Notes under the pieces: generated by a model
What the model was told of the DNA's origin: nothing
The model's input: only the letters and a program-made list of their open reading frames with translations
Databases searched by the model: none
Shown: positions 3,390 to 51,867 of the stretch, in pieces
How positions within the stretch are numbered: position 1 is the first letter of the stretch
Layout of the letters: every line of letters begins with the position of its first letter
Translations under genes and position numbers: made by a program
Assembly (NCBI GenBank): GCA_000002445.1
Contig: CM000207.1
Span: 288,001-352,000 of the forward strand
Direction of reading: 5' to 3'
DNA: 64,000 nucleotides
DNA from: Trypanosoma brucei
Lineage: Eukaryota

Positions 3390-4501
3390 TTATTCTCTCC
3401 CCCTTTTTATGTTTTTGTTGCTTGTTGACTGCATACCCCCTCTGTCTCTGAGGGTGTCTGGACTATTCCTGCATCCGGTGCTTTTCCTGCTAGCTCCACA
3501 CTCGGCAATAAGGGGGGAAGTTGCAGAAGGGAGAGTGGGTTGTATGACTGTTACCTTAGGTGAGGACTTCACCTGCGGCCGGCTCCGTTCAACCGCAATG
3601 AGAAACTGCGCCAGCCTTTTGGAGAAGCATATATCCTGCACACACTCACCTTCCACCGCAAACCTGACACGTAACTCCTTCAAACCGGGACAGCTCATCG
3701 AGTGCAGCGACGTTTCTTCACAGTCGCCGCGTTGGCTGGTAACAGCGCGCTCTACCTTCATACCGTGCATCTTCTTTTGATGTAGGGTGAGGCCAGTTTT
3801 GCTAGCACACTGCCTTCCGCATGTCGGGCACACCAACATGGATGCATTTGTATGCGGGGAATCAGTGGCACAAAATTTTTTGCTTTTGCTGCATTTAAGC
3901 TCGACACCCTCACCTTTGTGGAAAGCCTTACAGTGTCGGATGAGGGAGTCCCTGCAACTGAGCACTTTTTGGCACACACCACACTGCACCTCGCCTTTCC
4001 CCTGGGGACGTTAACGTTTCCCTCACGGGCACGCTTACGAGGGAATTGCACCACCACCACGGTACCGTCCTCCGTCACTATGCTCTTATGTTTGAATTTC
4101 TTGTCTAGTGACAGGGAAGAGCGTGTACCGAAACTCGCCTCACACAGGTCACATTGAAACGGCAGCTTCCGTGTATCCTGAGGGGCTGGCGCTGCTGGGG
4201 CGCTACCATCTCCTTGCACTGAGTCCTCGTTCTCTCGCTCCCTTTTCACGCGGCAACTACCGCTGCCTATGCCATGTATTGTTCTAAGGTGGTGTAATAG
4301 TCGGCCTGGCACTGCGAATTTGGAGGCACAGAGGGTACAATGAAGAACCTGCGGTCTCATCGGGACTCGTGTGTTCGATGGTAGAGGAACGATCACCACC
4401 ACTGGAGGGGGCTCCGGGGGGATATCCACTGCAGGTGTTGCATCGCCGTATTTGATCCTCCGGAGGGCATCAGCTCGCACAAAGCCATGTTTGTTTACCA
4501 T
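3390..4501 (-). CDS. ingi ORF C-terminal fragments with C2H2 zinc fingers
   Basis: Zinc-finger patterns CTLCASKF...HHLRTIH, FQCDLCEASF...KFKH, CPTCGRQCASKTGLTLHQKKMHG and CGVCQKVLSCRDSLIRHCKAFH occur in two overlapping frames, 3758-4501 and 3390-3989. Confidence 0.7.
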
Positions 4502-4756
4502 GCGCGTTACAGCACTCGAGCGGCATTGGTATATGGCATCACATTCCGTACATTTGGTCGGTTCGGAGGTTCTCTGAAGAGTGCGTGTCGCAACAGTTGG
4601 GACCGTTTGTATTGTTTGCCCTATCTCTGCATGTTGCGGGTTGCACCATCGGCACTGTGGGAGCGCACTCGGGTTGATCTTTCACAACATCCATCCATAG
4701 TGCCTTGAAGACCCAACCCGAAAGCGTGCCAGTGCCGTTTCTTCTTCCATCGTTAA

Positions 4757-6886
4757 TTATTCCTTATGTTTTGTTGTAAAGTGGTTGCCCGTGATACCAA
4801 ACCTATGAGTGTTCTCATGGACTTCTTCCGACCTAAGCACTCGCTTCGCATAAGCAATGATGTCGGGGATCCATGTGTCTCGCAACTGTGGTAAATCAGC
4901 GGCCTTTTTGGCCATTTCATCACAAACCTCATTCCGTTTCACGCCACAATGGCCAAACACAAATTGCAGTCGGATACGTATCTTCCTTCTCTGAACTTGA
5001 AGCAGAAGCCTCCATAGTCGTCTCAGAATTGGGTCCGTTACGGCTAGGGGGCCTGTCTGCAGTGCTGTTAACATTGACAGCGAGTCAGAGAAGATGGACA
5101 ACCTGCTCTGTGTGCTTCTGTATGCCGGAAGCCATTTCAGCAGCCGTTGCAGTCCTATCTCTAATGCTACGCATTCCGCTCTGTAACTGCATGAGAGTTC
5201 CTCTGCTCCGGTCTTGGGTGCACAAATCAGCGTGTTGTTTCTATAGAGCAGGGCAGCTGCTCCGGACTTCTCACCGAGGGACACGGATCCATCAGTCCAC
5301 AATTCGTAGTGCTCTCGCCGCGGTGGCTCCTTCCCCCTCCGTGCAAAATGCCGTGCAATCCACTTTTCGGAAGCCTCCCTTTTGACATCATCAGGGTCAT
5401 CAGCGCATACGGGCTTTATCTGCGTGTGAAATAGCGGTCGGCAGCTGTGGCGGAGCGTCGATGTCTCTAGTGGGTGCTCGCGTGGCTCAATGTGGAGGTG
5501 GGGATAGGACCACATGATGCGGGATTGTAGGGCTCTGACCGTATGTTTACTGTGGTATACTTCCTCAGCACTGCGGCGCAAACATCCGCCTCGTGACTCA
5601 CACATCAGCATGAATTTCATGCTGCGCACAAGAGTGGCCGTCTTGAGTAGCAGGAGGTTTGCTTCCAGCACAGAGTTCTCTTTGCGCGTCCCATGCGGTA
5701 TGCCGGCTATGATGCGACTGGCTTTGTGTTGTGCTGATGCAAGGAGGTCGCGACTTCGTTCCGAAGCGTCCCAGTACCATACCTCAATACCATACATGGT
5801 GTGTGCCTGTACGAGTGCTAGATAAAAAGCTCTCAGTACTTGTTGTCTTGGCCCCCATGTAGAAGCTGAGATGGCTACTATCTGCAGTAGTCTGAAGTCC
5901 ATCTTGCGTCTCGTTTCGGTCGCATGTGTTGCCATCCCCTGCAGACACTGGAATGTTACTCCTAGAAGCTTCGGTGTCCTGTCAGCTCCTATTCTTTCGC
6001 CGTCCAGTTGTAATGTAAGGGGGTGGCGCTCTGTACACCCGAAGAGTGTGCACTTTGTTTTCGCTACGTTGACAGACATGAAGTACTCTTTTGACCACTG
6101 TAACACCACGTTTAGGCCGCATTACAGCGTGTGGTTGATGACATCCCTCTCTGTGTGCCTCGCAAGTAGCGTTAGGTCGTCTGCAAAGAATCCGTGCTGC
6201 AGTAACGGCACTTCTGCAAGGCGTTGGCTCAACGAGTTCATGACAATAATGAACATGATTGGGCCAAGGACAGTTCCTTGTGGCACTCCTCGCTCAAATG
6301 TTCTGCTTCTGGAAAGCTTCTCCTTGAATCTCACTCTGCCAGTTCGGTTACTCAGAAATGATACGCACCACTTCACAATGTGGGGTGATACCTTCATTCT
6401 GTGCATTTCCCTCGCAATTTTGTCGTGGTCTACTGTATAAAATGTCTTCTCGTAGTCAACGAATACAGCACCCGTACGATATTGGTGCGTGGGACGGCAG
6501 AGGGCAGCACGGACGTGCAGGAGTTGTTCGAGCGTTGAGCATCCGGGGCGAAAGCCTGATTGCTGCGGCGTCAGCTGGGACTCAACAGTGTCTCTAAGCC
6601 TCGCGGCAATTATGCGCTCCATGACTTTGCAGAGACAGCTCGTGAGCGTCACAGCTCTGTAAGAATCGAGGTCCTCCGCCTTTTTTCCGGCCTTCAGGAT
6701 GGGGATGATAACACCAGTCTTCCATGCAGGCGGCACGACTCCCGTTCGTAGGCTCTTATTGAATAGCTTCAGCAAAACATTCAGCGCTGTTCTACCGAGA
6801 TGTTGCAGTGCCTCGTTGTATAAGCAATCAGGTCCGGCTGCGGATCCACTCGGTAGCAGTTTGATCGATCTCCTTAGTTCAGCCAT
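4757..6886 (-). CDS. ingi ORF fragments: reverse transcriptase (6122-6886 and 4757-6109) plus RNase H
   Basis: RT motifs include LCKVMERIIAARL, QSGFRPGCST, VFVDYEKTF and FADDLTLL (the YxDD-box variant). The RNase H-like stretch is WTDGSV...SYRAECVALEIGL...FSDSLSML. The region is split into two ORFs by a frameshift. Confidence 0.8.
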
Positions 6887-6967
6887 CGTGATGGGACTGA
6901 ACTCACTCGCTATCGTCTTTACTGGTGCTGGTGGGTGTGAGTCGGGGTGCCTTCTTGCGCGGGACGA

Positions 6968-8365
6968 TTACAGCTTACTGAACTTCTCAGCTTGACGGCA
7001 GTCCGTGATGGTCGCGTTATCGACAAGTACAGCCGGTGTGGTTAGTGGTCGTGGCGCATATACTTTCTTGACAATGTGCCAACTGCAGCGGTCTGACACC
7101 GCAAGTCTGGAGCATAGCGTGCTCCATCTCTTCTTTGTGGTACGGTCCAGGATCTGCTTACGCGTGGCTACCAACTTTTCCCTTCGGTGGGAGGGTCCGC
7201 ATCCAGCGATCTCTTCATCGAGTTTCGCGAGCTCAGGTGTCCAATGTGGTGGCGTTGCTCTGCAGCCACGGGGGACGGAGACCTTCGTCGCAACGCGGAT
7301 TTCGGAGCTCAATTTCTGTTCCAGGGTGTTGACATTCTTCTCTCTACCAATTTTCCTACAGAGGTCGTCAACCTTGAGACGGAAATTCCTCCAGTCAGCT
7401 TTCAGCCATACGTACATGGGCTTTCGAGGCCGCGGGCAACTCAGTGCATCTGTGCCGTCTCCAACGATAACGTCAAAAAATATGTGATGGTGATCGCTAT
7501 CGGGAGAATACAGCGATGTCCACGTGTACACTGTGCAATTCCTTGACAGTGTCACATCAGGGGTGGACTCCCCGTGGTGGCGCGCGTACCTGGTGCACTC
7601 ACCAGTGTTGCAGACCAGAAACTGGTTGTCAATGCACCACTGTGTGAGGGTTTCACCCTTGGTATTTGGTGGGCTCGCGCGATCCCATGCCAACGCGTGT
7701 GCGTTAGCGTCTGCACCGATGAGCTGGGCACCGTCAGTCATCAGAAGCGTATCTAGGTCAGTTGCCGTGAAGGTGTGTTTTGGTGGGATGTATGCCGACG
7801 TGACAGTCAGCGCCGTTTCACTTGCAAGGTGAATTGTTGCATGCACTTGTTCAATGCGACTAACAACGGTCATACCGCTCTCGACTGGTAGGTCCTCCCT
7901 CACTAGTATTGATACACCACCTCCTTTGCAGTTACGAGCTATTCCGTGATGTTGGTAGCCAGCAACGCTAAAGCAAACCGCCTCTCCAGGCGTCATCCTT
8001 GTCTCGCTCAACGGACAAAAGGCGATCCGCTCATCAACAAGGGTTTTGTGGAGTGCTAATCTCTTTCCTTGAGATAGCCCGGCGCAGTTCCACTGTATCC
8101 CGCGCAACGACGGGCCGGGATTCTCTTCCACATCACCGGACAGCAACATCTTAGTGCGGATGATACTGCTGATGACACACTGGCACGTGCCCAGGGACCG
8201 ACAAATGAAGAACGGTGTCCCAGCAAGACGCTGCTGATCCCTGTGCTGTATGATGCCGTAGCCGGAGCACAGCAGTGTTCCCCATGAAAGGAACGCTTCT
8301 GACTCTTGGCTTACCCCGATGATACGGGGTACTGGACCCTGGCACCACGTTGAGGTGGCCGGCAT
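6968..8365 (-). CDS. ingi ORF fragment: N-terminal 2A-like motif plus apurinic/apyrimidinic-type endonuclease domain
   Basis: The ATG sits inside the element terminus (LAMPATSTWCQGP). DVEENPGP lies at 8111-8134. Endonuclease-like motifs present include IQWNCAGL, VSILVRED and LTVTSAYIPP. The ORF then breaks by frameshift. Confidence 0.8.
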   Translation of the reverse strand: MPATSTWCQGPVPRIIGVSQESEAFLSWGTLLCSGYGIIQHRDQQRLAGTPFFICRSLGTCQCVISSIIRTKMLLSGDVEENPGPSLRGIQWNCAGLSQGKRLALHKTLVDERIAFCPLSETRMTPGEAVCFSVAGYQHHGIARNCKGGGVSILVREDLPVESGMTVVSRIEQVHATIHLASETALTVTSAYIPPKHTFTATDLDTLLMTDGAQLIGADANAHALAWDRASPPNTKGETLTQWCIDNQFLVCNTGECTRYARHHGESTPDVTLSRNCTVYTWTSLYSPDSDHHHIFFDVIVGDGTDALSCPRPRKPMYVWLKADWRNFRLKVDDLCRKIGREKNVNTLEQKLSSEIRVATKVSVPRGCRATPPHWTPELAKLDEEIAGCGPSHRREKLVATRKQILDRTTKKRWSTLCSRLAVSDRCSWHIVKKVYAPRPLTTPAVLVDNATITDCRQAEKFSKL

Positions 8366-8373
8366 CGCCAGGG

Positions 8374-8385
8374 TGTTATTTTGAT
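8374..8385. repeat. Target-site duplication of the ingi insertion, right copy (TGTTATTTTGAT)
   Basis: Identical to 3107-3118. Confidence 0.85.
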
Positions 8386-8774
8386 GAAAACAAAACGCCA
8401 AAATGTTTTCCAAAAGAGAGCAAAGAAGACAAGAAAAATGGGCATAATGGGAAAACGTAAACTAAAAACACCACAGGAAACACTTCTTTTGTCATTCATA
8501 TGACCCCTCTTTTGCTTGCGCTTTTGATTCTATAATTTAAATTCTAAATTATTTTTTCCAATTTTCTCAAATTTTATATTTTGAGAGAATTGCTATATTT
8601 GTGATATTTTAAAGTTGTTGATGAAAATGTGCAAATTCGTTTAATTTTTTTAAAAATGCGACATGTGTGCATGATAGCTATCTATCGGTGTAAAGTACTA
8701 TGGTGACAGGTTATGGAAAATTAGTGCTTTTCTACTTTGTTTATATAGTTTATTTTATGGATATTAGTCAGGAT

Positions 8775-11895: not shown

Positions 11896-12254
11896 TTAAA
11901 TTTTTTCACCCTCTATTTCCTTGCTGAAATTTAATATATTTTAACAACTGAAAGTTTCCCGGAAATAGTGTAGTTTTGTAAGTTTGTGATTCTGCAAAGT
12001 TTTTATGATAGCTAAAAAAATTTCTCTATTTTTCACATTTTTTAGAATTTTTTCAGGGTTATGATTTTTTAGAATTTATAGGGTTAGGTTTTTTCAAGGG
12101 CTTTTTAATTTTCGACTTTGTTTAATTTTGTGTCTTTTGGAGCATTTTTTATTTTTTCCTTCGTTTTTTCGGTTTTTTATTTTTGTCCAACTTTTTTAAA
12201 TCTTTTTTTTAATTTTAGGAGAAACAAAACCGATCAACAAGCTGAAAAGAGACT

Positions 12255-12300
12255 AAACAGAGTTGAAGTTAGGGTTAGTGTTAGGGTTATTGGATTGAGG
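12255..12300 (+). repeat. Degenerate TTAGGG telomere-repeat stub downstream of a VSG
   Basis: The string gttgaagttagggttagtgttagggttattggattgagg sits within a T-rich tract that follows the VSG 3'UTR. Confidence 0.5.
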
Positions 12301-12379
12301 TTGTTAATTTTTTGATTGTTTTTTATTTCACTTCTTTTTATTTTTTATTTTTTCTAATTCTTCAATTTTTAAAATTTTA

Positions 12380-12735
12380 TTGATGCAGCGGCTCTTTTTC
12401 TTGATGCGGGATATGACCCTTATTTACCCAGCAAGCATCTTCATTCTTATATTTTTCACCTGCGCCATCTACCTAATTTGTTACTTTTTTGCTTTTGTGC
12501 ATTTTAGCTCGGCATGTAGCGCTGCACGCGGCTTTTTTGTTAACAGTGGCGCGTGGCAGTTTCGCTTCGAGAAACGATTTGCTTTTAAAGAGACGATAAC
12601 AAAAAAATCTTAATATTTGGAAATGGCAAAATATGGAGTTCGGCAGCTAAAGCCAGTCGACGTAGCAGCCTGTACCGGTCGTTGCGCGGCACAGCAACAT
12701 AGCCAAAGTAAGCGGATGAGGCGAGCAGTTAACTG
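12380..12735. repeat. Conserved element, copy A of 2; homologous to 19055-19430
   Basis: By eye it shares about 80% identity with copy B. Both copies contain GATGCAGCGGCT..., gcgctgcacgc, cttaatattt(g/a)gaa(a/g)tggca(a/g)aatatgg and cggcagctaaa(g/a)ccag...cgacgtagcagc...ggcgcggcacagca. Confidence 0.6.
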
Positions 12736-13227
12736 CAGTGTCATCAGGCCACTGCGTGCACATCACCATGCCCCAACAGATCCGGCGGCGACAGTCAAAG
12801 ATCTTAATGCATGGCCCCAAAATCACTAAGTGCATAAATCTACCGCAAAAGCAAAGCAACAAGCCAACAGTAGAGGGACAGAAAAAATGCAAACCACAAA
12901 ACGCAACAGCTGAAGAATACACAAGCGAGGACTGCGAATATGATGCCGCCAAAAACACAGGAATGTAAACCTAAACAAGGAACAGAAACCCCAGCAACAG
13001 GAACAGGAGAGACAAGTTCTGGGGTAGATTGCAGCAAAAACCAAACCCAGAAAACCTGTGAAGCGAAAAACAAGGATGTAAAACCGGGTCAGAAAGCAGT
13101 ATGTGGATGGATAGATTATGTTGACGGCACAGGCAAGCTTCCCAAACCTGAGTGTCGCTCTTTCAGTTTCCTCATCAATAAGAAATTTTCTCTGACGGCA
13201 GATGCTTTCGTGGCTTTGTTAGAATGA
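12617..13227 (+). pseudogene. Orphan VSG 3' fragment (C-terminal-domain cassette), frameshifted
   Basis: ORF 12940-13227 ends ...KAVCGWIDYVDGTGKLPKPECRSFSFLINKKFSLTADAFVALL, a VSG C-terminal domain plus GPI signal. There is no N-terminal domain or signal peptide upstream. The fragment lies in two frames. Confidence 0.7.
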
Positions 13228-13320
13228 TGAGAGTTTAAGCACTCTAAGAATTATTTCTCAATTTTTTGAAATATTGCTATTTAGAAACAATTTACTATAA
13301 TTAATAAATTTGCCACTATG

Positions 13321-13336: not shown

Positions 13337-13539
13337 CATTTAGAAGAAAAAAGAAATTTAATGAAATTTAAGGGCTAGAAAATGTAAAAAATGTTTTTAT
13401 GAAAGTGTCATGCTGTTGTTAAGCAGTAGGATATTAGGGTATTAAAAAATAGTGACATTTTAACATGCTTTGTTTTGTTTTCTAATTATGGACATCAAGT
13501 AGGTTTATAATAAAATCAATAGTTAAGAACATTATAATG

Positions 13540-13698
13540 ATAATAATATAAGTGATATTGATAGCGGAGTGTTGTGAGTGTGTATATACTAATATTATAA
13601 TAAGAGCAGTAATAATAATAATAATGATACTAATAATAGAAGAGTGTTGTGAGTGTGTATATACGAATATTATAATAAGAGCAGTAAAAATAATAATA

Positions 13699-13729
<31 letters not shown>

Positions 13730-13878
13730 TAATAATAGGAGAGTGTTGTGAGTGTGTGTATATGCGAATATTATAATAAGAGCAGTAAAAATAATAATAA
13801 TAATGATAATAATAATAATAGAAGAGTGTTGTGAGTGTGTGTATATGCGAATATTATAATGAGAGTGCTGCGGTCACA
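13540..13878. repeat. VSG-upstream 70-bp repeat array, about 4.5 imperfect units
   Basis: The array repeats (TAA/TGA)n, then GAGTGTTGTGAGTGTGTGTATATRCGAATATTATAATAAGAGCAG. (TAA)n runs reach 10 units. Confidence 0.85.
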
Positions 13879-15944: not shown

Positions 15945-17510
15945 ATGCCACAGATCTCAAGGTGTTCAAGGCACCAATTAACCGTAGCAGCATTGTCGCT
16001 AGTCTTCTCGAATTTAGCAAGAGGCGCGACCACAAACGGCGTAAACGCACCAGCGTACGCAACTTTGTGTGACATTTACAATCTTAAGGATGCTAAACCA
16101 CCAACAGTATGGGCAAAGCAGTTTGATGACGCCCAAAGTTTAATAACGGCCATTTACAATCTGAACATTAGTACCGCAAGTGATACGTGGCTAACAAACA
16201 AAGACGGCGAGTTCGCAAATATCTCCGACAGCGCCGAGAGAGACGGGCAGTTGAAGGAGTGGATTAAGCAAGTCGAAGCGACAACAGCCGCAGACACGAC
16301 CACGGGTAAACCAGGGCCGTACAGCAAAGTACCCAACAACCCCTTCAAACCGATCGCAAACAAGCAAATTGACGCTTTGTACCGGCAAGCGCAAACGAAA
16401 AAAGGAGCCTTCGAGCAAGCTAAGAAAGAAGTAACAGAAGCACACACCAAAGCGAACCGTAAGATTCTGGACGCCATCTACGGCACCGGTAAATCGGCTT
16501 TCGACACTACAGCTTTCACAACCACAAAACAGCAAATGTGTGGCAACGGCAACAACGGCCACGCGAATGTCGGCAAAAACATACTAAACGACATGATCTG
16601 CCTTTGCACGGCGGAAGGCAGCCAATCGGACAAGGCATGCGGAGAGAAAGACATGGGCGAAGTGCAAAGCGACGCGACAGGGGCCGAAGCCGCAGCAGCA
16701 AACCTCGAGGGGGCGTGTACCAAAAAAGAAACAAAACAAGAGCTCTCAGAGGCCCTAATACAAGCGAAGCTAGCAGCGTTTTTCGCACACGTCGGTGCAA
16801 TACCAGACAGCCAAACTGACGCCTCGGTACGATTCGTACTAGGCCAGGCCCAGACAGGCGGCTGTGTAGGATCAAGCAACAAGCAATGCGTAAACTACAA
16901 AGCGCAATTAACTACAGGGGGCGGCGGAATTCCATGGGTCAACCAACTGGAGGAAGCGGCCTCGATTTTACGCAGGGCATCAATAGCATACGCCGAAGCA
17001 GCCCACATCGATGCCGAACTAAAAAGTCTGAAGGCCCAGGCCGCCAGCTTACGCAATGCAGCAGTCATAGGCATTGCTCTGCCTGATATGGCCTCAACAG
17101 AACGCCGCCTCGATAGCCCCAAAGAACTTAGTTAAAGTGCAGAACAAGCTTGTAACAAACTAAATAGTGAACAAAAGTGCAATGCTGATCCGAAATGCAG
17201 TTACGAAACAGAAAGCGATGGCACCAAAAAGTGCAAATATAATGCGACAAAAGCGAAAGAAAAAGGAGTTTCTGTAACACAAGCTCAAACAGGAGGAGGA
17301 ACAACTGCACCCTCAGATAGGTGCACAAAACACAAAGACAAAACGAGCTGTGAAAAGGAAAATGAGGGCCAAAAACCGGCCGAAATTCCGAAAGATAAAA
17401 AATCTGTTTGTGGTTGGATTGAGGAGAAATGCAAAGATTCTTCTATTCTAGCAACTAAAAAATTTGCCCTCAGCATGGTTTCTGCTGCATTTGTGGCCTT
17501 GCTTTTTTAA
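15945..17510 (+). pseudogene. VSG, near-intact, with a single in-frame TAA at 17133-17135
   Basis: A signal-peptide-like start (MPQISRCSRHQLTVAALSLVFSNLARG) at 15945 is in frame with the long ORF. After the TAA the same frame continues through a C-terminal domain, ...CNKLNSEQKCNADPKCSYETESDGTKKCKYNATKAK...SVCGWIEEKCKDSSILATKKFALSMVSAAFVALLF, and reaches a stop at 17508-17510. Confidence 0.8.
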
Positions 17511-17569
17511 GTTCCCCCTCTCAATTTACTAAAAAATTCTTGCTAAAAAATTTTGCTACTTGAAAACTT

Positions 17570-17586
17570 CTTATATATTTTAACAC
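17570..17586 (+). promoter_or_regulatory. VSG 3'UTR 16-mer-like element, variant CTTATATATTTTAACAC
   Basis: It lies downstream of the VSG stop codon and is preceded by ttgctacttgaaaac. Confidence 0.5.
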
Positions 17587-17714
17587 CTTTAAATTCCACC
17601 GAAAAAATTGAGCTGTGTTTGTAAGTTGTAAAGTTTGTGATTCTGTAATTTTCTAATTTTTCTAGCAACTAAAATTTTTTTTTCTTTCCTTTTCCTGTCT
17701 TTTTAATTTTTGTA

Positions 17715-17866
17715 GGTAGGTAGGAGGGGGGGGTAGTTAGGTTAGTTAGGGGGGTTAGGTAGGATTAGGATTAGGATTAGGGTTAGGGTTATGGTTACTC
17801 GGTTAGGGTTAGGGTTAGGGTTAGGGTTAGGATTAGGGTTACTCGGTTAGGGTTAATTTTTCTTTT
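17715..17866 (+). repeat. Interstitial telomere repeat tract (TTAGGG)n, G-strand on the plus strand
   Basis: The tract reads ggtaggtaggagggggggggtagttaggttagttagggggg, then (ttaggg)n with variants ttagga and ttatgg and a ttactcgg spacer. Confidence 0.85.
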
Positions 17867-17879
17867 TTTTTTCTAATCC

Positions 17880-19100
17880 ATTTTTTTTATAAAGTGATGC
17901 AGCGGCTCCTCCTTTTTTATGTGCACCGCCGCAGCCGTTACGATTTATTATGTTTTCATATACCAGGTTGCTTGTTTTTTAATTTTTCAACTTTTTATTA
18001 GTGATGCAGCGACTCCTTTTTTTTTCACTGACGTTTAATTTATTTTTTTTCATATTAGTGATGCAGCGGCTGTTTTATTATGTGGACCCTAACCCTCCTC
18101 CCCCCCACCCCAGACGCCCCCGCGTACGCACCTTTTTTTTTCGTGTTTTTTTGTCTTCTTGATTTTTCGAATTTTTTTTCAATGTTTTATTCGAACTTAT
18201 AATTTTTTTGATTCACTCACAATTTTTAATTATTTTTTTTTAGCCGTGCAGCGGCTGTTTTATTATGCGGACCCTAACCCTCCTCCCCCCCCGCACACCC
18301 GCGCACCCGCACAGTTTTTTTAATTTTAATTTTTTTTACGTTTTGGAATGCGCGAATTTTTTTAGTGCGTTTTTCACAAAGCCTTTTTTACCCTTTTTTT
18401 TGTATTACGTGATTTTATTTTTTTAATTTTCCGATTTTTTGATTTTAGTTTTTTTACGCCACACCCGCGACTTTTTTTGTCTTTTTGGTTTTTCGAATTT
18501 TTTTTCGTTCATTCTTTTGGCTTTTATAATTTTTTTGTTTTTATTTTTTGATTCTATTTTGCATTTGAATTTTTAAGTTTTTTTATTTTTAATTTTTTAA
18601 TTTATTGTTTTTTGCTTTTTAAGTTTTTGACATTTTTTGTTTTTGATTCCTTTTTTTGTCATCGACCGACACAAATTTTCTGTCACCGCCCCTTTTTGTT
18701 CGGCACGGCAGATGCGGTGTTTCGGGTTCAGGTGTTTCGGGTTAGGGGTTAGGGTTAGGGTTACTCGGTTAGGGTTACTTTTTTTCCTTTTCACTTTTTT
18801 TAATTTTTTTTTATGATGCAGCGATTTTTTTCGCAGCCCTGCCGGCAATCCAATTTATTATTTTTATTGTTTCTATTTTACAACACTTTGCTAATTTAAT
18901 TTTTAACTTTTTCTTTAGCGATGCGGCGGCTATTTTATTATGCGGACCCTAACCCTCTCCCCCGCGCGCACCTCCGTTTTTTTAATTTTTTTTGCCGCAT
19001 TTTTCAGCCCCTGTTTTCGAGTTTCTTTCAAATTTTTTTGTTTTTCAACCCAGCGATGCAGCGGCTGTTTTTTCTTCATAAACCCTGACACTTATGCGCG
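17880..19100. repeat. Composite T-rich tract with at least four GATGCAGCGGCT-family units (three followed by inverted CCCTAACCCT) and a second TTAGGG tract
   Basis: GATGCAGCG(G/A)CT-family units lie at about 17893, 18001, 18058, 18246, 18814, 18919 and 19064. The units at 18058, 18246 and 18919 run on into GTTTTATTATG(C/T)GGACCCTAACCCTC(C/T)TCCCCC (through 18108, 18296 and 18969). The others carry the head only. A TTAGGG tract in plus orientation lies at 18719-18778. The remainder is poly-T-rich, low-complexity sequence. Confidence 0.7.
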
Positions 19101-19430
19101 CTACAGCCATCCTCGCTTAAATTTTTTAAATATTCAGCACCTACCCGTGCAGTGGTGTTTGATACTTTTTTGCTTTTTTGAATTTCAGCTCTGCGTTTTG
19201 CGCTGCACGCAGCTTTTCTTTTTACGCTGATGCGTGTCAGTTTCGCTGCAGGAAACGATTTTCCTTTCAAGAGGCGCTAACAAAAAACTCTTAATATTTA
19301 GAAGTGGCAGAATATGGCGCTCGGCAGCTAAAACCAGCCGACGTAGCAGCTTGGACCGGTCGTGGCGCGGCACAGCACCCTAGCCAAAGCAGCCAGAGCT
19401 CTCAAACAATCAGCTGAAGCAGCAGCAGGG
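19055..19430. repeat. Conserved element, copy B of 2; homologous to 12380-12735
   Basis: See copy A at 12380-12735. Confidence 0.6.
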
Positions 19431-19904
19431 CAATGCAGGTGCATCACCATGCCCCAACAGATTAGGCGGCAGATGTAAAACATCTTAATGCTGGGTTCCA
19501 TAAGCACCACTTCCGAAAATACACTGCAAAAACAAAGCAGTAAGCAAACAGTAGAGCAAAAAAATAAATGCAAACTGAAAAACACAACTGCAGGAGCATG
19601 ACCAGAAGCTGACTGCGACAATGATAACACCACAAAGGAATGCAAACCTAAACCAGGATCAGAAAACGCAGCAGCAGGAACAGGAGATGGAGCAAAAAGT
19701 AAGTCTCAACAGTATAAGGACACAGATAGTTGCAAGAATGCACCAGAAGAGAAAAATCTAGCTAAAAATGCAGTCTGTGGTCGGATTTATTTTATTGATG
19801 GTCAAGGAAACGTTGAAGCTTAATGCTGTGATAAAAGTTTTTTTGCAAAAACGAAATTTTCTCTGATCGCCGCTGCTTATATGAGTTTGTTAGCAATTAA
19901 ATGA
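19430..19904 (+). pseudogene. Orphan VSG 3' fragment (C-terminal-domain cassette) with an internal stop
   Basis: The fragment is homologous to 12738-13227. It reads ...KNAVCGRIYFIDGQGNVEA, then a stop, then ...KFSLIAAAYMSLLAIK, then a stop. A 3'UTR 16-mer lies downstream. Confidence 0.7.
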
Positions 19905-20007
19905 TTTTATTACTCTAGTTATTTAATGATTATCGCTCAATTACACGAAAAACAAGAAATTTATAAATTTTTTTATTTTGGGAGAATTTACTAAAAATTC
20001 GAAAATT

Positions 20008-20023
20008 TGATATATTTTAACAC
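20008..20023 (+). promoter_or_regulatory. VSG 3'UTR 16-mer TGATATATTTTAACAC
   Basis: Exact match to the conserved 16-mer as I recall it, about 100 bp after the stop of the C-terminal-domain fragment. Confidence 0.7.
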
Positions 20024-20177
20024 TTTTTTGACAAAATGTACTAATTTTTGAAATTATCAAAAGCTGGTATGATAGTAGGTAATGGGCGTAGTGCCATGCA
20101 CTGATAGTGTGTAAAAATTAAGTACTATTATAATTTGTTTTATTTATTATATGCATATTAGTTATACTTGTATCATT

Positions 20178-20340
20178 AATGGTAATGATGATAGAAGAGT
20201 TGTGTAAGTGTGTATATACTAATACTATAATAACAGCAGTAATAATAATAATAATAATAATATTAATATTAATAATAATAATAATAAAGGAATTTGTGGT
20301 GAGTGTGGACATACTAATATTATTATACGAGTTGTGATGA
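20178..20340. repeat. 70-bp repeat array, about 2 units
   Basis: The array reads gatgatagaagagttgtgtaagtgtgtatatactaatactataataacagcag, then a (TAA)n run, then ggaatttgtggtgagtgtggacatactaatattattatacgag. Confidence 0.8.
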
Positions 20341-21223
20341 ATACTAAATTTCCAGAAAAAATAAAAGCAGTCAGATAAGCGGCAGGGGTGTATTGGAACT
20401 AGTTTATTTAGTAAGTGAGTTTAGAAGTGATAGAGGACGAGAAATATTAAAAGAAGTGCAGAAACTAAGAAAGAAGAATGTTGATTATGAACAGTTTCGG
20501 ATACAAGCATGACGATCGTCATCATGACATGCAAAGGTGATGAAGCACCCATTTAAGAAGCTACAGAATCACGTATACAGGCCTAACGGTGTTGGTGCCT
20601 CATTCAAAGAACCAGCAGCATTAAACAAAAAGGAATGAAAGAATATATGGCATGAAACAGCATGATATGCAGTAAAAAACAAATAGGAATATAGAACAGC
20701 GTGATTATATAGACTCGGAATGACACACCTTATTTTATTTTAAGAATGTATAGACACGGCGGTGGACATGGTTTCATGTATCGTTTGTAATCTGATAATG
20801 GCCAGTTAGATTTAAAATAATAACAGAAGAGTTCTTATTATAAAGTAAAAGCTGGTGCTAACATTTCTCCAGATAATATTTTTAAAGAGAGGAAAGAGGC
20901 TGACTAGCTGTATTTTTGAATGTAATGAAATGGAAAAATAGAACGTGGAGAGCGATGGCCTACAGATAGCACAATACGTTCGGAATAGCCATTAATTCAG
21001 ACCCAAAGATATATGTTGGGACCGCAAAAGGAAACAACAGGAATGAAATCTTTTATCCACAGTAAAAGTAATGCAAAGATTAGGAGCGTATGCATAAACA
21101 ATTTTCAAGTACATTTTGAACCACAGGTGGTAACAATCCATGCTGTTTCCGACGCTGTAACAGTCTGTAGAACCCAATAAAGATTCTTTAACAAAGTTAC
21201 TTTCGTGTTATAAAAGAAAAAAA

Positions 21224-22852
21224 GTGCGAATGATGTTCGGCAAAGCAACTGGAGAAAAGATTGAGCTGGCGAGCACATCGGCGGCGATAACCCTCCTTAT
21301 TTGCATGTTGGGTACCCCTAGCGAGGTGGATGCAACTGCAGGGCACGCTATCAAGAGACAGCATTGGGTTGCTATTTTTGAACTAGGGCAGGATGCAGAA
21401 AAGATACCAGCTTTAGCACTGACAAACCTGAGGAGCGCTGCAAGCGTGGCCGAAGATGCATTCACGAAGCTACTAAGAGCGCTAATTTACGCGCAAGCTA
21501 ACCTCACTAGAAGAACCCTACCAAAGGAAAAGGCAGCATGGTTTTTTTTGGGAGAAGAGGTCGCCGCTGGTCTAGCTTACTTCAAGGGCGGCAAAGCAGC
21601 AGCTGACATAACAGCCGCCCGTAACGCCGGTAGGCTGCAGGGCGCCATCACAGAATTCATTGAGCTCCACGCAGAGGGCTCAGACGGAACTAACGGCTGT
21701 CTCAGCGCAGATGACGACGGGGGCAACCCGATCAGCGGCAAGGCAACTTTCTCAGGCGCAACAACGGCATGCAAAGCAAACTGGGATGACGTAAAAGCAG
21801 CATCAACAAGGCCAACAGTTATCGCCGCCAACGGACTCGTAGGAAAACTGCAAAACGGAGTCGACCACGACAATCTAGTAAACGGAGCGAAACAGTGCGA
21901 TATAAACTCAGCGAAAACGACCTTCAAGCTGTCTGACGGGGCAAGCGACGGAACTAACGTGGGCACGCACATACCGAAAATGGCGGCAGGCATAATAACA
22001 GTGGGCACCACGGGACTCGAGATACCAAGCATGGCAAGCGTGGGACCGACGACTGGGCACCACGACTTCTTGAAATCAATAGTACAAGCAGCAAAGTGCG
22101 ACCAACACAGACTGCAAAAAGCAGCAGTGGACACCCTGGCAGAGGCGCAGAAGGAACCGAGGTTCAAAAAGGCAACAAAAATACACCTCCAAAACAAGAA
22201 ATCCGACGACCCCGATGATGAAGACTCCAGAGAGCGTGCGATAAAGACGGCATACGGCGACGACGACGGCATGCGGAAGGTGCTTTACGCCCACCCAGAT
22301 GGCCAACCAATCCCCAAAGCAGCACTAGGCACCGACGCCGACACAACATTAGGCCAAATCACGGACGTTGGTGAACTGATGCGTTTGTACTTTTACTATT
22401 CGGACTTGAACAAGCAGAAACTACTAGAAGCTGAGAAAAAACTTCAAGAAGTAGAAACCAAGACGGCTACAAAATCAGCAGAAGACAAAGAGAAAGAATG
22501 CAATACCAAAGGGAAAGACAAAAAGGAAGAGTGTGAAAAACTAGCGAAAGAGGGGTGCGTTTTTAACACAGAAGCCAAAAAGTGTGAGTTGAAAAAAGAA
22601 GTGAAACCTGAGCTAGAAAAAGCAAACCAGGAAACAGGAAAGACAACAACAGATAAGTGTGGCATAGAAAAACCTCCTGAGGACTGCGAAAAAGTGCAAG
22701 GTACGAAACCCAAAGGAAAAAATGTCGTTTGTGGTTGGATTGATTATATTGATGGAAAGGGCAAAGTTGAGCCAGCTTGCCGCTCTTCTAGTTTTCTAGT
22801 CGACAAGAAACTTGCTCTTATTTCTGCTGCATTTGTGAGCTTGCTTTTTTGA
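21224..22852 (+). CDS. VSG, apparently intact (542 aa) with signal peptide, N-terminal domain, Cys-rich C-terminal domain and GPI signal
   Basis: This is one uninterrupted ORF. The N-terminus carries a hydrophobic stretch (AAITLLICMLGTPSEVDA). The C-terminus reads ...KECNTKGKDKKEECEKLAKEGCVFNTEAKKCELKK...CGIEKPPEDCEKVQG...VVCGWIDYIDGKGKVEPACRSSSFLVDKKLALISAAFVSLLF. A 70-bp repeat array lies about 0.9 kb upstream and the exact 16-mer lies 90 bp downstream. Confidence 0.85.
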   Translation: MRMMFGKATGEKIELASTSAAITLLICMLGTPSEVDATAGHAIKRQHWVAIFELGQDAEKIPALALTNLRSAASVAEDAFTKLLRALIYAQANLTRRTLPKEKAAWFFLGEEVAAGLAYFKGGKAAADITAARNAGRLQGAITEFIELHAEGSDGTNGCLSADDDGGNPISGKATFSGATTACKANWDDVKAASTRPTVIAANGLVGKLQNGVDHDNLVNGAKQCDINSAKTTFKLSDGASDGTNVGTHIPKMAAGIITVGTTGLEIPSMASVGPTTGHHDFLKSIVQAAKCDQHRLQKAAVDTLAEAQKEPRFKKATKIHLQNKKSDDPDDEDSRERAIKTAYGDDDGMRKVLYAHPDGQPIPKAALGTDADTTLGQITDVGELMRLYFYYSDLNKQKLLEAEKKLQEVETKTATKSAEDKEKECNTKGKDKKEECEKLAKEGCVFNTEAKKCELKKEVKPELEKANQETGKTTTDKCGIEKPPEDCEKVQGTKPKGKNVVCGWIDYIDGKGKVEPACRSSSFLVDKKLALISAAFVSLLF

Positions 22853-23109: not shown

Positions 23110-23210
23110 TAGTTAGGGTTATAATAATAATAACAAAGATGATATTAACATGAGAGCGTGCCGAAAGTGTGTACATACTAATATTATAATAAGAGTAGTG
23201 GTGAGAACTA
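23110..23210. repeat. Single 70-bp repeat unit
   Basis: The unit reads ataataataacaaagatgatattaacatgagagcgtgccgaaagtgtgtacatactaatattataataagagtag. Confidence 0.6.
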
Positions 23211-31439: not shown

Positions 31440-32879
31440 TGGCTTCTTTCCTTTTTTTTCGAATATGCTCCGTTACTTTTGTGTCTTTAACTTCTTTGTT
31501 GGCAGTGCTTGTATCTTTGTCATTTGTGGCAATACGTGGAATTTCAGTGTTCCGCAGGAGACAGCAGTTGTCCCAATAACAATTTTAAAAGCCAGGACAA
31601 AAATGTTTTTAAGAGCAACCCCTTTAAGGACTACAGTGACTATGAAACCGTGATCATGTTTGCTATCTTCCGTATGCAGAAAAAAAAACGGCTGCGCCAT
31701 TGTCATATCTTCACGTTATTTGTGTTGTGGGTTTTAGCGGAGCTATCACTAATGGAATGCACCCGACCATTACTGCTCTCTTGCTGAATGAGTGTGCCGT
31801 GCCCGCGTGCTTCCTTCTCCAAGCTCCCTTCCACTTCTCACGTTGTGGATCTCACCAAACCATATAGTGGCGCCTTTCCTCATCCCATTGCTCCTCGTAA
31901 ACTTTCTTCCGACGGAAGTTGCGCAATACTTGATCTTTTCGGGAAATATATAATTATGAGTTTGGGCAGCAACTCCTTCCCGAGTATAATCATACCTGAT
32001 ACTTCCTTAAGGCCCTATATTATTTCTGAGCATGGCACAACGCCTCTGCAGCCCTTCACTAGTTCATGCATCCCTCTTCCTCCCTTGGAAGGCCTTGTTA
32101 TTTCAATGTGCCGATATCCTAACCCTAACAGTAACGGACGGATAAGAAAGCATAAAATATGAAATTTCTGCCGCAATATACATGTGAGATGACGGAAAAT
32201 AAACGGATTGTTTATCATTAAAGTTGAAATTGAGTGATAAACTCATAAAAAGAGTTTAAAAGAAATTAGCATAGCAATAATAATGATAAAAATAGTGGAA
32301 GTTTGGACAACCAAAGGGTGTGTCTTTGAATGTACGTCGCAGATGGCACGCCACAATGTCCCAGTCTATCGAATTGCTCTTGGAGATGTTTGAAATACTC
32401 GTTTTCACTTACTCTGTCGTTGGTCTCGAGGAGGGCGGTTGCTTCAACAAAAAGTAGGTCAAGCGTTGTGTAAAACTCACGCGCCCTCTGAGTGAGCTTC
32501 CCTGTCTGGAGCGTCACCACTCGTTTGGATGTTCTGTTGCCGCTGCTTTTTTCTCTGGCATTGGCCAACGTGTGACCGAAGCGTTCGAGGAGCTCCGCGA
32601 CGGTGCACAGGACGGACAACGAATTGTTGCTCTCTTTGGATCCGCCGTCTTGGGCAGCGAGAACCTGCCCGCTGCCAAGCGAAAGCTCAAGAACAAGTTC
32701 CCAGAGAAACCCAAGTCTGCTCACATCTTATAGAATGCTTAAATACTGAATCAAGGGAATTTAAACAACTAGGGAAAGGACGAAAAGGCGATTAATAACC
32801 GTACCTACTTTTATCACGGATATGAAAGATCTCACTGCTCCTTTCCATCAAGGACATTGTCAGTTGATACGAGCAGATA

Positions 32880-49773: not shown

Positions 49774-51867
49774 TCACTCCTCCCATAATCCACCACTGTA
49801 GAAGGCACCCGCTTCACTCATTGTATGCTTATCTGGTGCCTCATCAACTTTACTGTCAGCCAGCTCCGCCTCTACCTCAGTCACTTCTACCGTCTCCGCA
49901 GGTTTTGCTTCCTCACACACGTCAACATCACTCGCTTTATCAAGACCTTCACACACTTCGTCCGCGACATTAATTGCCGTCTCACAATTATCAGCGTCAC
50001 CGGAAAGTTCTGCCTGTGTGGACTCTTGCTGTGCCCCCGCCTCAGCCCTATTGCTCCCCTGCTGCACCCCGCAACACCCTTGTTGCGACTCACGCACCAA
50101 ACTGCAGCTTTCCATTACCTTTCTCGCGAGCACAATTCCCGTGGCAAGTGAAGAGCGCTCGTCACTTAAAGACTCGGAAACAGGAAGGGTCAATTGTATG
50201 CCTGGGTTCCCTATCAACGCAATGGAGGCGCTGTTACCGTCCAGGCTGATCAGTTTCCATCCAAAAAGTTGACACAGCGAGCTGCTCCTTTGCATGGTTT
50301 CCTGAAGCAGGGACCTCCGTACCTCCTCCAAAAGCGAGTTAAACACGGCACTGTCCTGCGGTCTGTCAATCGAACGCACAGCCAATTCATACCGTCTCTT
50401 CCATTCCAATACTTCGCTTTTATAACTCTCTGCTGCACGGCGTAGAGACGCCACTTGTTCATCCGCCTGTAACTGCCTCGCCAATAGAGTTTTAAAGCCT
50501 TCGTCAGACGTTCTCTGTCTCTTACGCTCCGGGCCTGTTTCCGAAACACTGTGATAAAATAGTCCCTGCCCCTCTGCATGCCTTTGGTGCTCGTCACGAA
50601 GTCGCTTCAGTTCTCGACTCAACTCCGACAGTTTTTCGACGTCCCGGGCCAGCGTTTCAATTGTAGACCCGTCGCCGCCCGCACAGTTACGATTTATTTC
50701 ACGGGAAAGAAGTAACTCACGCCCCTCAGCAACTACCAGGCGCTGATTGAAGCATTCTTCCTGCGTGATGAGGTACGCCCTGAGGGCTTCCGCACTACTT
50801 ACAACATTTTGCCTTCGTTCGCTTCGAAGAGCCAACAACTCATTGTAGAGAGGAATAATACTATCCACACCTTCTTTGTTCAGCACCAACCGCACCTCTG
50901 CCGTGCTATCCTGTAGTTTGCATAACTCTTCCTTAATATTACCAACCGCCTCTGTTTCGCATTGCAACGGTTCTGGCGCTAGGGACAAAGGTCTACCGGA
51001 AGGAGCTCTGTAGGTAGTATCCGCCTCTGAAGAAGTTGGTGTTGCAACAAATGCAGTGTTCAACCCGATTTTAGCACCTGTTAGATCTAGTTCACTGAAA
51101 ACCTGGCGCGTCCTCTCCATGGAATGTTGGATTGCGCCGAGCCACTCCGGTTCGTCATCCATGTAAGCGGCTGCAGAAGAGTCCGTCAATGCTTCCTTCA
51201 CGTGCCCTGAAGGCGGTGGGCGCCTGGCCAATTCCAAGAGTCGTTGTGACAGGTTCAGAAGTGTGAGGTTGCCAGAAGAAGTTATTTGTCCCTCAACATC
51301 GTTACAAGCGCCTTGTGAAAGTTTGTTTTGGTAAGTCGAACCAGTAACTGAGTGGAAGAGCTCGGCGACAACGCCGGTCAACCGTCCAATTGCATCCGAT
51401 TCCAAAATTTCCTCGGTGTTCGTGCCCGTGTCAATTTGCATACGCGATGCCTGTGCGAAGCTACAAGCGTTAGCATCTGAAGTTCGAGTTAAGCCAGCCT
51501 GGTTTCCTACTATATCCGCACCACTGCCCGCTGTGGATGAATAGGAAGAGTCACGTGGTGATGACGAGGAATGCGAATCTTCTATCACGTATACGTCACT
51601 GCTATTGCTGGACATCGACCTAACTTTCTCCTTCCCTTTTCTAATTGTAAATTTCTTCACACACATTTTTTTTTTACAATAGAAGGGAATGCAGCAACAA
51701 AATCTGGAAGTGGTTGACAAGACCCTCAAACAAGCAGGAAAACAAGACATGTTTTCAGAAAGGGAAATCGTTTCGTTCTGCTGTGAGGTGGAAGGGGAAC
51801 TGTACGCGTAAAATATATAAATAATAGCCAAACATTCACAAACTTTGCCGTCACTACCATACACCAC
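49774..51867 (-). CDS. Hypothetical protein (697 aa) with coiled-coil regions
   Basis: Long ORF in line with the surrounding unit. No recognisable catalytic motif. Confidence 0.55.
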   Translation of the reverse strand: MVYGSDGKVCECLAIIYIFYAYSSPSTSQQNETISLSENMSCFPACLRVLSTTSRFCCCIPFYCKKKMCVKKFTIRKGKEKVRSMSSNSSDVYVIEDSHSSSSPRDSSYSSTAGSGADIVGNQAGLTRTSDANACSFAQASRMQIDTGTNTEEILESDAIGRLTGVVAELFHSVTGSTYQNKLSQGACNDVEGQITSSGNLTLLNLSQRLLELARRPPPSGHVKEALTDSSAAAYMDDEPEWLGAIQHSMERTRQVFSELDLTGAKIGLNTAFVATPTSSEADTTYRAPSGRPLSLAPEPLQCETEAVGNIKEELCKLQDSTAEVRLVLNKEGVDSIIPLYNELLALRSERRQNVVSSAEALRAYLITQEECFNQRLVVAEGRELLLSREINRNCAGGDGSTIETLARDVEKLSELSRELKRLRDEHQRHAEGQGLFYHSVSETGPERKRQRTSDEGFKTLLARQLQADEQVASLRRAAESYKSEVLEWKRRYELAVRSIDRPQDSAVFNSLLEEVRRSLLQETMQRSSSLCQLFGWKLISLDGNSASIALIGNPGIQLTLPVSESLSDERSSLATGIVLARKVMESCSLVRESQQGCCGVQQGSNRAEAGAQQESTQAELSGDADNCETAINVADEVCEGLDKASDVDVCEEAKPAETVEVTEVEAELADSKVDEAPDKHTMSEAGAFYSGGLWEE

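Follow-up and report, generated by a model that had tools for sequence, protein, structure and literature searches.

How does telomere-type DNA come to lie behind a variant surface glycoprotein (VSG) gene that is nowhere near the tip of its chromosome? The question is raised by a locus in a 64,000-nucleotide stretch of Trypanosoma brucei DNA (contig CM000207.1, positions 288,001 to 352,000; hereafter the window), where a VSG is followed by two short tracts of the hexamer TTAGGG and by T-rich repeats. An earlier note on this DNA had described the locus as a fossil telomere, captured, healed or fused on the spot. The locus is a real feature, namely a subtelomeric interstitial telomeric sequence with telomere-associated repeats. 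Our best reading is that it is the relic of a telomeric VSG cassette, which was inherited and later multiplied by segmental and tandem duplication. It is probable, with room for doubt, that an old, degenerate interstitial telomere tract and T-rich telomere-associated repeats together make up a heritable 3′-flank module of VSG cassettes. The fossil of the earlier note is therefore retained as the relic of a telomeric cassette, and given up as the trace of a local event, the relic having been inherited. The parts of the locus and its upstream VSG are listed below.

15945..17510, plus strand: VSG pseudogene with a B-type N-terminal domain and a C-terminal domain (Pfam PF13206, E 2.3e-64, and PF10659, E 8.7e-28; translation)
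17511..17715, plus strand: VSG 3′ untranslated region (3′UTR) and pyrimidine tract, with an element ...ATATATTTTAACAC... and ending in TTTTTGTAG (read from the sequence)
17716..17751, plus strand: G-rich degenerate junction GTAGGTAGGAGGGGGGGGTAGTTAGGTTAGTTAGGGGGGTTAGG (read from the sequence)
17752..17855, plus strand (G-strand): interstitial telomere tract 1 (Tandem Repeats Finder, hexamer census)
17856..18735, plus strand: T-rich block 1 (T 0.50), with repeat units u1 at 17896, u2 at 18003, u3 at 18060 and u4 at 18245
18736..18777, plus strand (G-strand): interstitial telomere tract 2 (Tandem Repeats Finder; alignments to tract 1)
18778..19157, plus strand: T-rich block 2, with units u5 at 18815, u6 at 18920 (carrying a 56-nt C-rich block) and u7 at 19055
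19158..19541, plus strand: conserved block, matching 12477 to ~12860 (76% over 536 nt, E 1e-110)
19542..19934, plus strand: VSG C-terminal-domain fragment, a pseudogene (PF10659, E 1.4e-8; tblastn), followed by a 3′UTR

The two tracts are clearly telomere-like in sequence. At no more than one mismatch, the window holds 13 occurrences of TTAGGGTTAGGG, where 0.12 would be expected, and 10 of these 13 lie in the locus, all 10 on the plus strand. Tracts 1 and 2 measure 104 and 42 nt and together hold 13 perfect TTAGGG hexamers. Tandem Repeats Finder resolved tract 1 as a period of 6 (17 copies, 79% matches) and also as a 44-bp higher-order period (2.2 copies, 90%), while the census counted nine perfect TTAGGG, three TTAGGA and two interruptions by TTACTCGG, the longest perfect run being 31 nt (17801-17831). 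With its 44-bp period and with TTACTCGG recurring three times, the tract is one of variant higher-order repeats, not of perfect repeats of the telomerase type. Neither tract is terminal, as they are flanked by 17 kb of sequence on the left and 45 kb on the right. They are too short and too degenerate to function as a chromosome end, and their G-strand runs towards the core genes, which would be opposite to a native end on this arm.

An origin of the TTACTCGG variant by telomerase reading past its template boundary was considered and rejected: with the TbTR template 5'-CCCUAACCCUA-3', the break is expected after ...GGG, whereas the variant breaks after TTA. In metagenome scans, this tract variant was found in two unrelated contigs. 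Both of them, Ga0163111_10099063 (1-190) and PJEL010008663.1 (540-760), contain degenerate TTAGGG tracts with the same rare GGGTTACTCGGTTAGGGTTA variant and a TTACTTGG variant, and beside the tract of Ga0163111_10099063 lies a GC-rich segment that is duplicated and looks like coding sequence. The sharing of GGGTTACTCGGTTAGGGTTA with these contigs looks like coincidence or a recurrent path of mutation.

The placing of tract 1 is that of a telomere behind a telomeric VSG, as had been proposed. The stop codon of the B-type VSG is separated from the G-rich junction by 205 nt, with the first TTAGG at 17737, and published distances from VSG to telomere span 200-1590 nt across 17 sequenced bloodstream expression sites (PMC2567434). 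The locus also shares with a telomeric VSG cassette the 70-bp repeats upstream (TAA-rich/GT-rich, ~13500-13865, about 2 kb before the start of the B-type VSG), the C-terminal domain with its 3′UTR, and a G-strand on the sense side. It differs from such a cassette in that its tract is internal, short and degenerate, the chromosome continuing for at least 45 kb past it in the direction of the core, and in that T-rich repeats and further VSG cassettes come after the tract.

The T-rich sequence described as following the tract, with its repeated units, was likewise recovered. T amounts to 0.47 of the bases over 17716-19157, the AT skew is -0.4 to -0.6, and the T-richness is confined strictly to the sense strand. 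Allowing up to two mismatches, GATGCAGCGGCT occurs 14 times in the window against 3.95 expected; its plus-strand copies comprise seven at 17896-19066 (u1 to u7), as many as the minimum previously claimed, and an eighth at 12382. Alignment of these eight units leaves eight columns invariant, TGC.GCG plus two T positions. Three units are indeed extended, forming a 69-nt repeat at 18048-18116, 18233-18301 and 18908-18976 with 83-84% identity. On the plus strand, u3 continues as a C-rich block of 74 nt and u4 as one of 70 nt (64-67% GC); each contains ACCCTAACCCT, the two are 185 nt apart, and the spacer between them has a GC content of ~19%. More generally, GC-rich blocks of 56-74 nt (62-67% GC) alternate with T-rich spacers of 79-111 nt (19-32% GC) at a 185-nt period.

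A comparison of the two halves of the locus revealed its tandem structure. Block 2, with u5 to u7, is colinear with the start of block 1, which points to a tandem duplication of ~0.98 kb within the locus. The second plus-oriented tract, also expected from the earlier note and placed here at 18736-18777, shares its 3′ junction with tract 1: GGGTTACTCGGTTAGGGTTA, T-rich DNA, and then the GATGCAGCG unit 37-40 nt on. The two junctions align at 78% (17824-17891 with 18746-18813) and, in a longer alignment, at 80% over 96 nt (17815-17904 with 18736-18823).

The flank is not confined to the B-type VSG. A paralogous, shorter module lies behind another VSG of the array, whereas a third VSG has none:

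10685 to ~11897, plus strand: A-type VSG pseudogene (PF00913)
12037..13287, plus strand: paralogous shorter module behind the A-type pseudogene (nucleotide alignments)
21230-22852, plus strand: intact A-type VSG, the sole intact VSG in the window

The module at 12037-13287 is an addition to what the earlier note had observed. It consists of GGGTTA remnants (12055-12090), a tract TTAGGGTTAGTGTTAGGGTTA (12268-12292), T-rich DNA and the GATGCAGCGGCT copy at 12382, and continues with the conserved block, a VSG C-terminal fragment (12997-13224) and 70-bp repeats. From 12301 to 13287 it is colinear with 18979-19967 (67% over 1010 nt, E 3e-127), and 12259-12341 matches the tract-1 junction, 17811-17890, at 75%. 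The junction of tract and T-rich DNA therefore exists in three homologous copies of 75-80% identity. Even the immediate 3′ flank of the B-type VSG (17511..17715) aligns at ~62% with that of the A-type VSG (11916-12186). The VSGs upstream of the two modules belong to different N-terminal classes, PF00913 and PF13206; since the flanks are homologous and the classes differ, it is the flank that is paralogous, and not the gene bodies.

These alignments bear directly on the idea of a local event. Because tract, T-rich DNA, unit and conserved block recur at 12.0-13.3 kb, and in tandem within the locus itself, the junction was formed once and then copied; healing or capture of a telomere at this particular site is not supported. 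The telomere-repeat/T-rich junction has been copied at least three times, and the copies have diverged by 20-35% since. The copies within the locus are 72-84% identical and thus old. Propagation of this sort has precedents: the human subtelomeric (TTAGGG)n islands and the internal TG1-3 tracts of yeast, between X and Y', are interstitial tracts at duplicon boundaries that were spread by segmental duplication. Common to these and to the present case are short degenerate tracts between repeated blocks, here as three homologous junctions in two cassettes. The differences are that subtelomeric interstitial sequences are usually oriented like the telomere close by, whereas here the G-strand appears to be directed to the core, and that the blocks in question are antigen-gene cassettes.

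A plausible course of events would begin with a telomeric VSG that had 70-bp repeats in front of it and, some 200 nt behind it, TTAGGG on the sense strand. This VSG would have lost most of its telomere tract and become joined to T-rich subtelomeric DNA leading on to the 3′ fragment of a VSG and to the cassette after it. The composite flank would then have been copied with the array by segmental duplication, and its homologous copies are now found 3′ of at least two VSG bodies that are unrelated, an A-type and a B-type. The bodies could have been exchanged by gene conversion bounded by the 70-bp repeats and the 3′ end of the gene, with the flank left in place. Within the locus, unequal exchange would have produced a tandem duplicate of ~0.98 kb, comprising tract, T-rich DNA and units, which would account for tract 2 and its homology to tract 1, and the homologous 185-nt units of GC block and spacer would have been amplified locally.

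What remains today is most likely a neutral relic. Any present effect would be limited to weak binding of the telomere proteins TRF/RAP1, a tendency of both strands to form G-quadruplexes, and homology that ectopic recombination could use. Weak subtelomeric peaks have been read as 'residual ES sequences from recombination' (PMC10686619; ES, expression site), a reading that agrees with that of a relic. As this principle has already been described there, the locus illustrates a known principle more than a new one.

Several points weigh against an inherited telomeric relic. The intact VSG at 21230-22852 has no module, its 3′UTR leading straight to a 70-bp remnant and then to unrelated sequence; the module is therefore not universal. 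The chromosome end is placed to the left of the window from gene content, the subtelomeric VSG array filling the left of the window, from 1 to ~24 kb, and core genes lying to the right. Moreover, the joining of a telomere remnant to T-rich DNA is a step that we only infer, and the telomere-like tracts might always have been internal to a subtelomeric repeat, without ever having been an end. Finally, the comparison of modules covers two loci within one 64-kb window.

The most serious of the alternatives takes up the last of these doubts about origin. It holds that the tracts are telomere-derived subrepeats of a canonical telomere-associated repeat family found 3′ of many VSGs and never formed a chromosome end, which we consider unlikely, though not negligible. 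The alternation of ~70-nt GC-rich blocks with T-rich spacers at a 185-nt period would suit such a family, as would a tract built of higher-order variants (the 44-bp period, TTACTCGG three times) instead of perfect repeats of the telomerase type. A minichromosome subtelomere reported by Weiden et al. in 1991 is said to have contained GGGTTA repeats, 29-bp telomere-derived repeats and 74-bp G+C-rich direct repeats ~155 bp apart, and the order of T-rich/GC units followed by TTAGGG at 17856-18777 matches the inside-to-tip order reported for it. Aline & Stuart, in 1989, are likewise said to have described a 'conserved sequence organization 3' to telomeric VSG genes'. The architecture is similar to that reported for the minichromosome subtelomere in its telomere-derived variant repeats, ~70-nt G+C-rich direct repeats and A+T-rich spacers. 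It differs in its shorter spacers (~80-110 nt against the ~155 nt reported for minichromosomes), in that Tandem Repeats Finder detected no 177-bp repeat in the window, and apparently in its T-tracts. In a periodogram with a crude control, these peaked at 8, 9 and 13-14 nt and not at the 10-11 nt of the helical phasing that would indicate bent DNA. The precise location of tract 1, where a telomere follows a telomeric VSG, also speaks against a repeat that was never an end. In favor of such a family, telomeric repeats of Leishmania are likewise interspersed with conserved telomere-associated satellites (PMC12676763). This trypanosomatid telomere-associated satellite, LCTAS, resembles the locus in its alternation of hexamer repeats and conserved non-telomeric blocks, and belongs to a different genus and to true chromosome ends rather than to an antigen-gene array.

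A second alternative is that the module is a selected cis-acting element that serves RNA processing or termination, silencing through TRF/RAP1, or homology for gene conversion; this seems to us distinctly doubtful. The T-richness restricted to the sense strand takes the form of pyrimidine tracts with AG, with the consensus YAG-YGATGCAGCGGCT, and in six of the eight units GATGC is preceded by a T-run and, at a distance of two bases, by AG. On sequence grounds, this may be said to resemble the context of a trypanosome splice acceptor. However, the six cases are not independent, because the AG belongs to the duplicated unit. Canonical G-quadruplex (G4) motifs offer another argument in favor, as four of the five in the 64-kb window cluster in the 1.3-kb locus, two per strand: those of the plus strand lie in the tracts (17806-17826 and 18739-18760), and those of the minus strand in the C-rich blocks (18093-18121 and 18278-18308). 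The fifth motif of the window is at 50046-50079, on the minus strand. On the other hand, the sole intact VSG is without the module, both VSGs that carry it are pseudogenes, and the copies, which have diverged and vary both in length and in composition, show no sign of constraint.

The most specific form of such a function is slightly more doubtful still. In it, the GATGCAGCGGCT/C-rich 185-nt repeat and the short TTAGGG tracts would together form a new 3′ boundary of array VSG cassettes that is in functional use. TRF/RAP1 (and base J) would be recruited to it inside the array, G-quadruplexes would form in both of its strands, and the telomere-side homology that it supplies would allow an array VSG to be copied into an expression site as far as the telomere. 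Were this true, the module would influence which silent VSGs get activated.

The proposal of a head-to-head telomere fusion, or breakage-fusion-bridge scar, in which plus-strand TTAGGG meets inverted CCCTAA, is very improbable. In its favor is the presence of ACCCTAACCCT three times on the plus strand (in u3, u4 and u6), 230-1100 nt downstream of plus-strand TTAGGG tracts, and an inverted duplication could also explain why the VSGs face away from the presumed chromosome end. With the human 2q13-type fusion relic, the locus shares the occurrence of both telomere strands on one DNA strand within ~1.2 kb. Unlike that relic, it has no abutting (TTAGGG)n/(CCCTAA)n arrays and no inverted flanks; the C-strand runs lie at least 230 nt from the tract, within direct repeats. 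The telomere DNA in both orientations, as it had been described, thus comes down on the C-strand side to 11 nt per unit. At the position of ACCCTAACCCT, the homologous u7 has CCCTGACAC and the copy at 12382 has TGACCCTTAT, and therefore the telomere-like state is an 11-nt variant of the direct-repeat unit, a single event triplicated with the unit. Telomere-like 10-mers occur elsewhere in the window as well, five in number or about one per 12 kb. An isolated telomere-like 12-mer, TTAGGGTTAGGA, was noted in a core intergenic region on the minus strand (32117-32128), and is counted in this 10-mer background (32118-32120).

Nor could we recover the inverted junction on which the proposal rested. 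The extension of the three longer units had been taken for the reverse complement of the junction near 17730, but GGGGGGGAGGAGGGTTAGGG is confined to the minus strand, in two units (18087-18106 and 18272-18291), and has no plus-strand match near 17730 at up to three mismatches. The best inverted alignment to 17727-17745 covers 15 of 19 nt (E ~10), and no inverted alignment at the locus is significant (E 1.4-10). Orientation is unchanged throughout, with the T-rich polarity, all units, the VSG C-terminal fragments, the 70-bp repeats and the VSGs on the plus strand. Since nothing inverts across the locus, and since the C-strand part is an 11-nt variant of the unit, we reject a head-to-head fusion.

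An assembly artefact, a chimera of an array clone and a true telomere clone, is hardly credible even though subtelomeric repeats are hard to assemble and the window comes from an older clone-based assembly. Real telomere reads do not look like these short, degenerate tracts; a diverged paralogue at a distance of 5.5 kb repeats the layout; and internal duplicates that differ by 16-28% must be evolutionary copies and not collapsed reads.

If modules of this kind lie behind many array VSGs, they would be a record of how the silent archive was made, from cassettes of former chromosome ends that were internalised and then copied. Through a widespread module, the archive would also contain binding sites for telomere proteins, DNA prone to form G-quadruplexes, and homology to telomere repeats, which could affect silencing, fragility and the choice of donors in antigenic switching.

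In the literature searched, which misses relevant papers of the 1980s-2000s, neither the unit nor an interstitial TTAGGG tract within a VSG array of T. brucei was described. The 32-nt unit had no matches in metagenome scans, and the interval 17300-20200 had none in Rfam. Open reading frames (ORFs) crossing the units gave no match in a word-indexed protein search, and a HMMER profile search of 1.84 billion proteins with them returned only two unrelated repeat proteins. The conserved block at 19158-19541, of ~380 nt, has no Pfam match and no VSG match by tblastn; its assignment as the end of a VSG N-terminal domain, lacking support from either, was dropped.

The surroundings of the locus are those of a VSG array. 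All three array VSGs (10685-~11897, 15945-17510 and 21230-22852) are on the plus strand, and from ~29.8 kb housekeeping genes (HECT, kinase, SET and others) follow on the minus strand; the VSGs consequently face the chromosome core. The B-type VSG at 15945-17510 is interrupted by a single in-frame stop (17133-17135). Behind the C-terminal fragment and its 3′UTR, 70-bp repeats at ~20177-20350 are followed by the next VSG, the intact one, which is 100% identical to XP_803417.1 of Trypanosoma brucei brucei TREU927. Repeats of the 70-bp type, in which a TAA run precedes a GT-rich GAGTGTTGTGAGTGTGT, occur upstream of each VSG, at 13500-13865, 20177-20350 and ~23120-23200; what follows the intact VSG is no more than a single remnant, with GTTAGGGTTA at 23112. 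Between the array and the core, the interval 23.3-29.9 kb gave no DNA match at E 1e-10 to the region of an ingi element (3.3-8.7 kb) within the array. This ingi-type non-LTR (long terminal repeat) retrotransposon occupies 3758-8413 on the minus strand, and comprises endonuclease, reverse transcriptase, RNase H and zinc finger parts; as it is split into four ORFs, it is probably degenerate.

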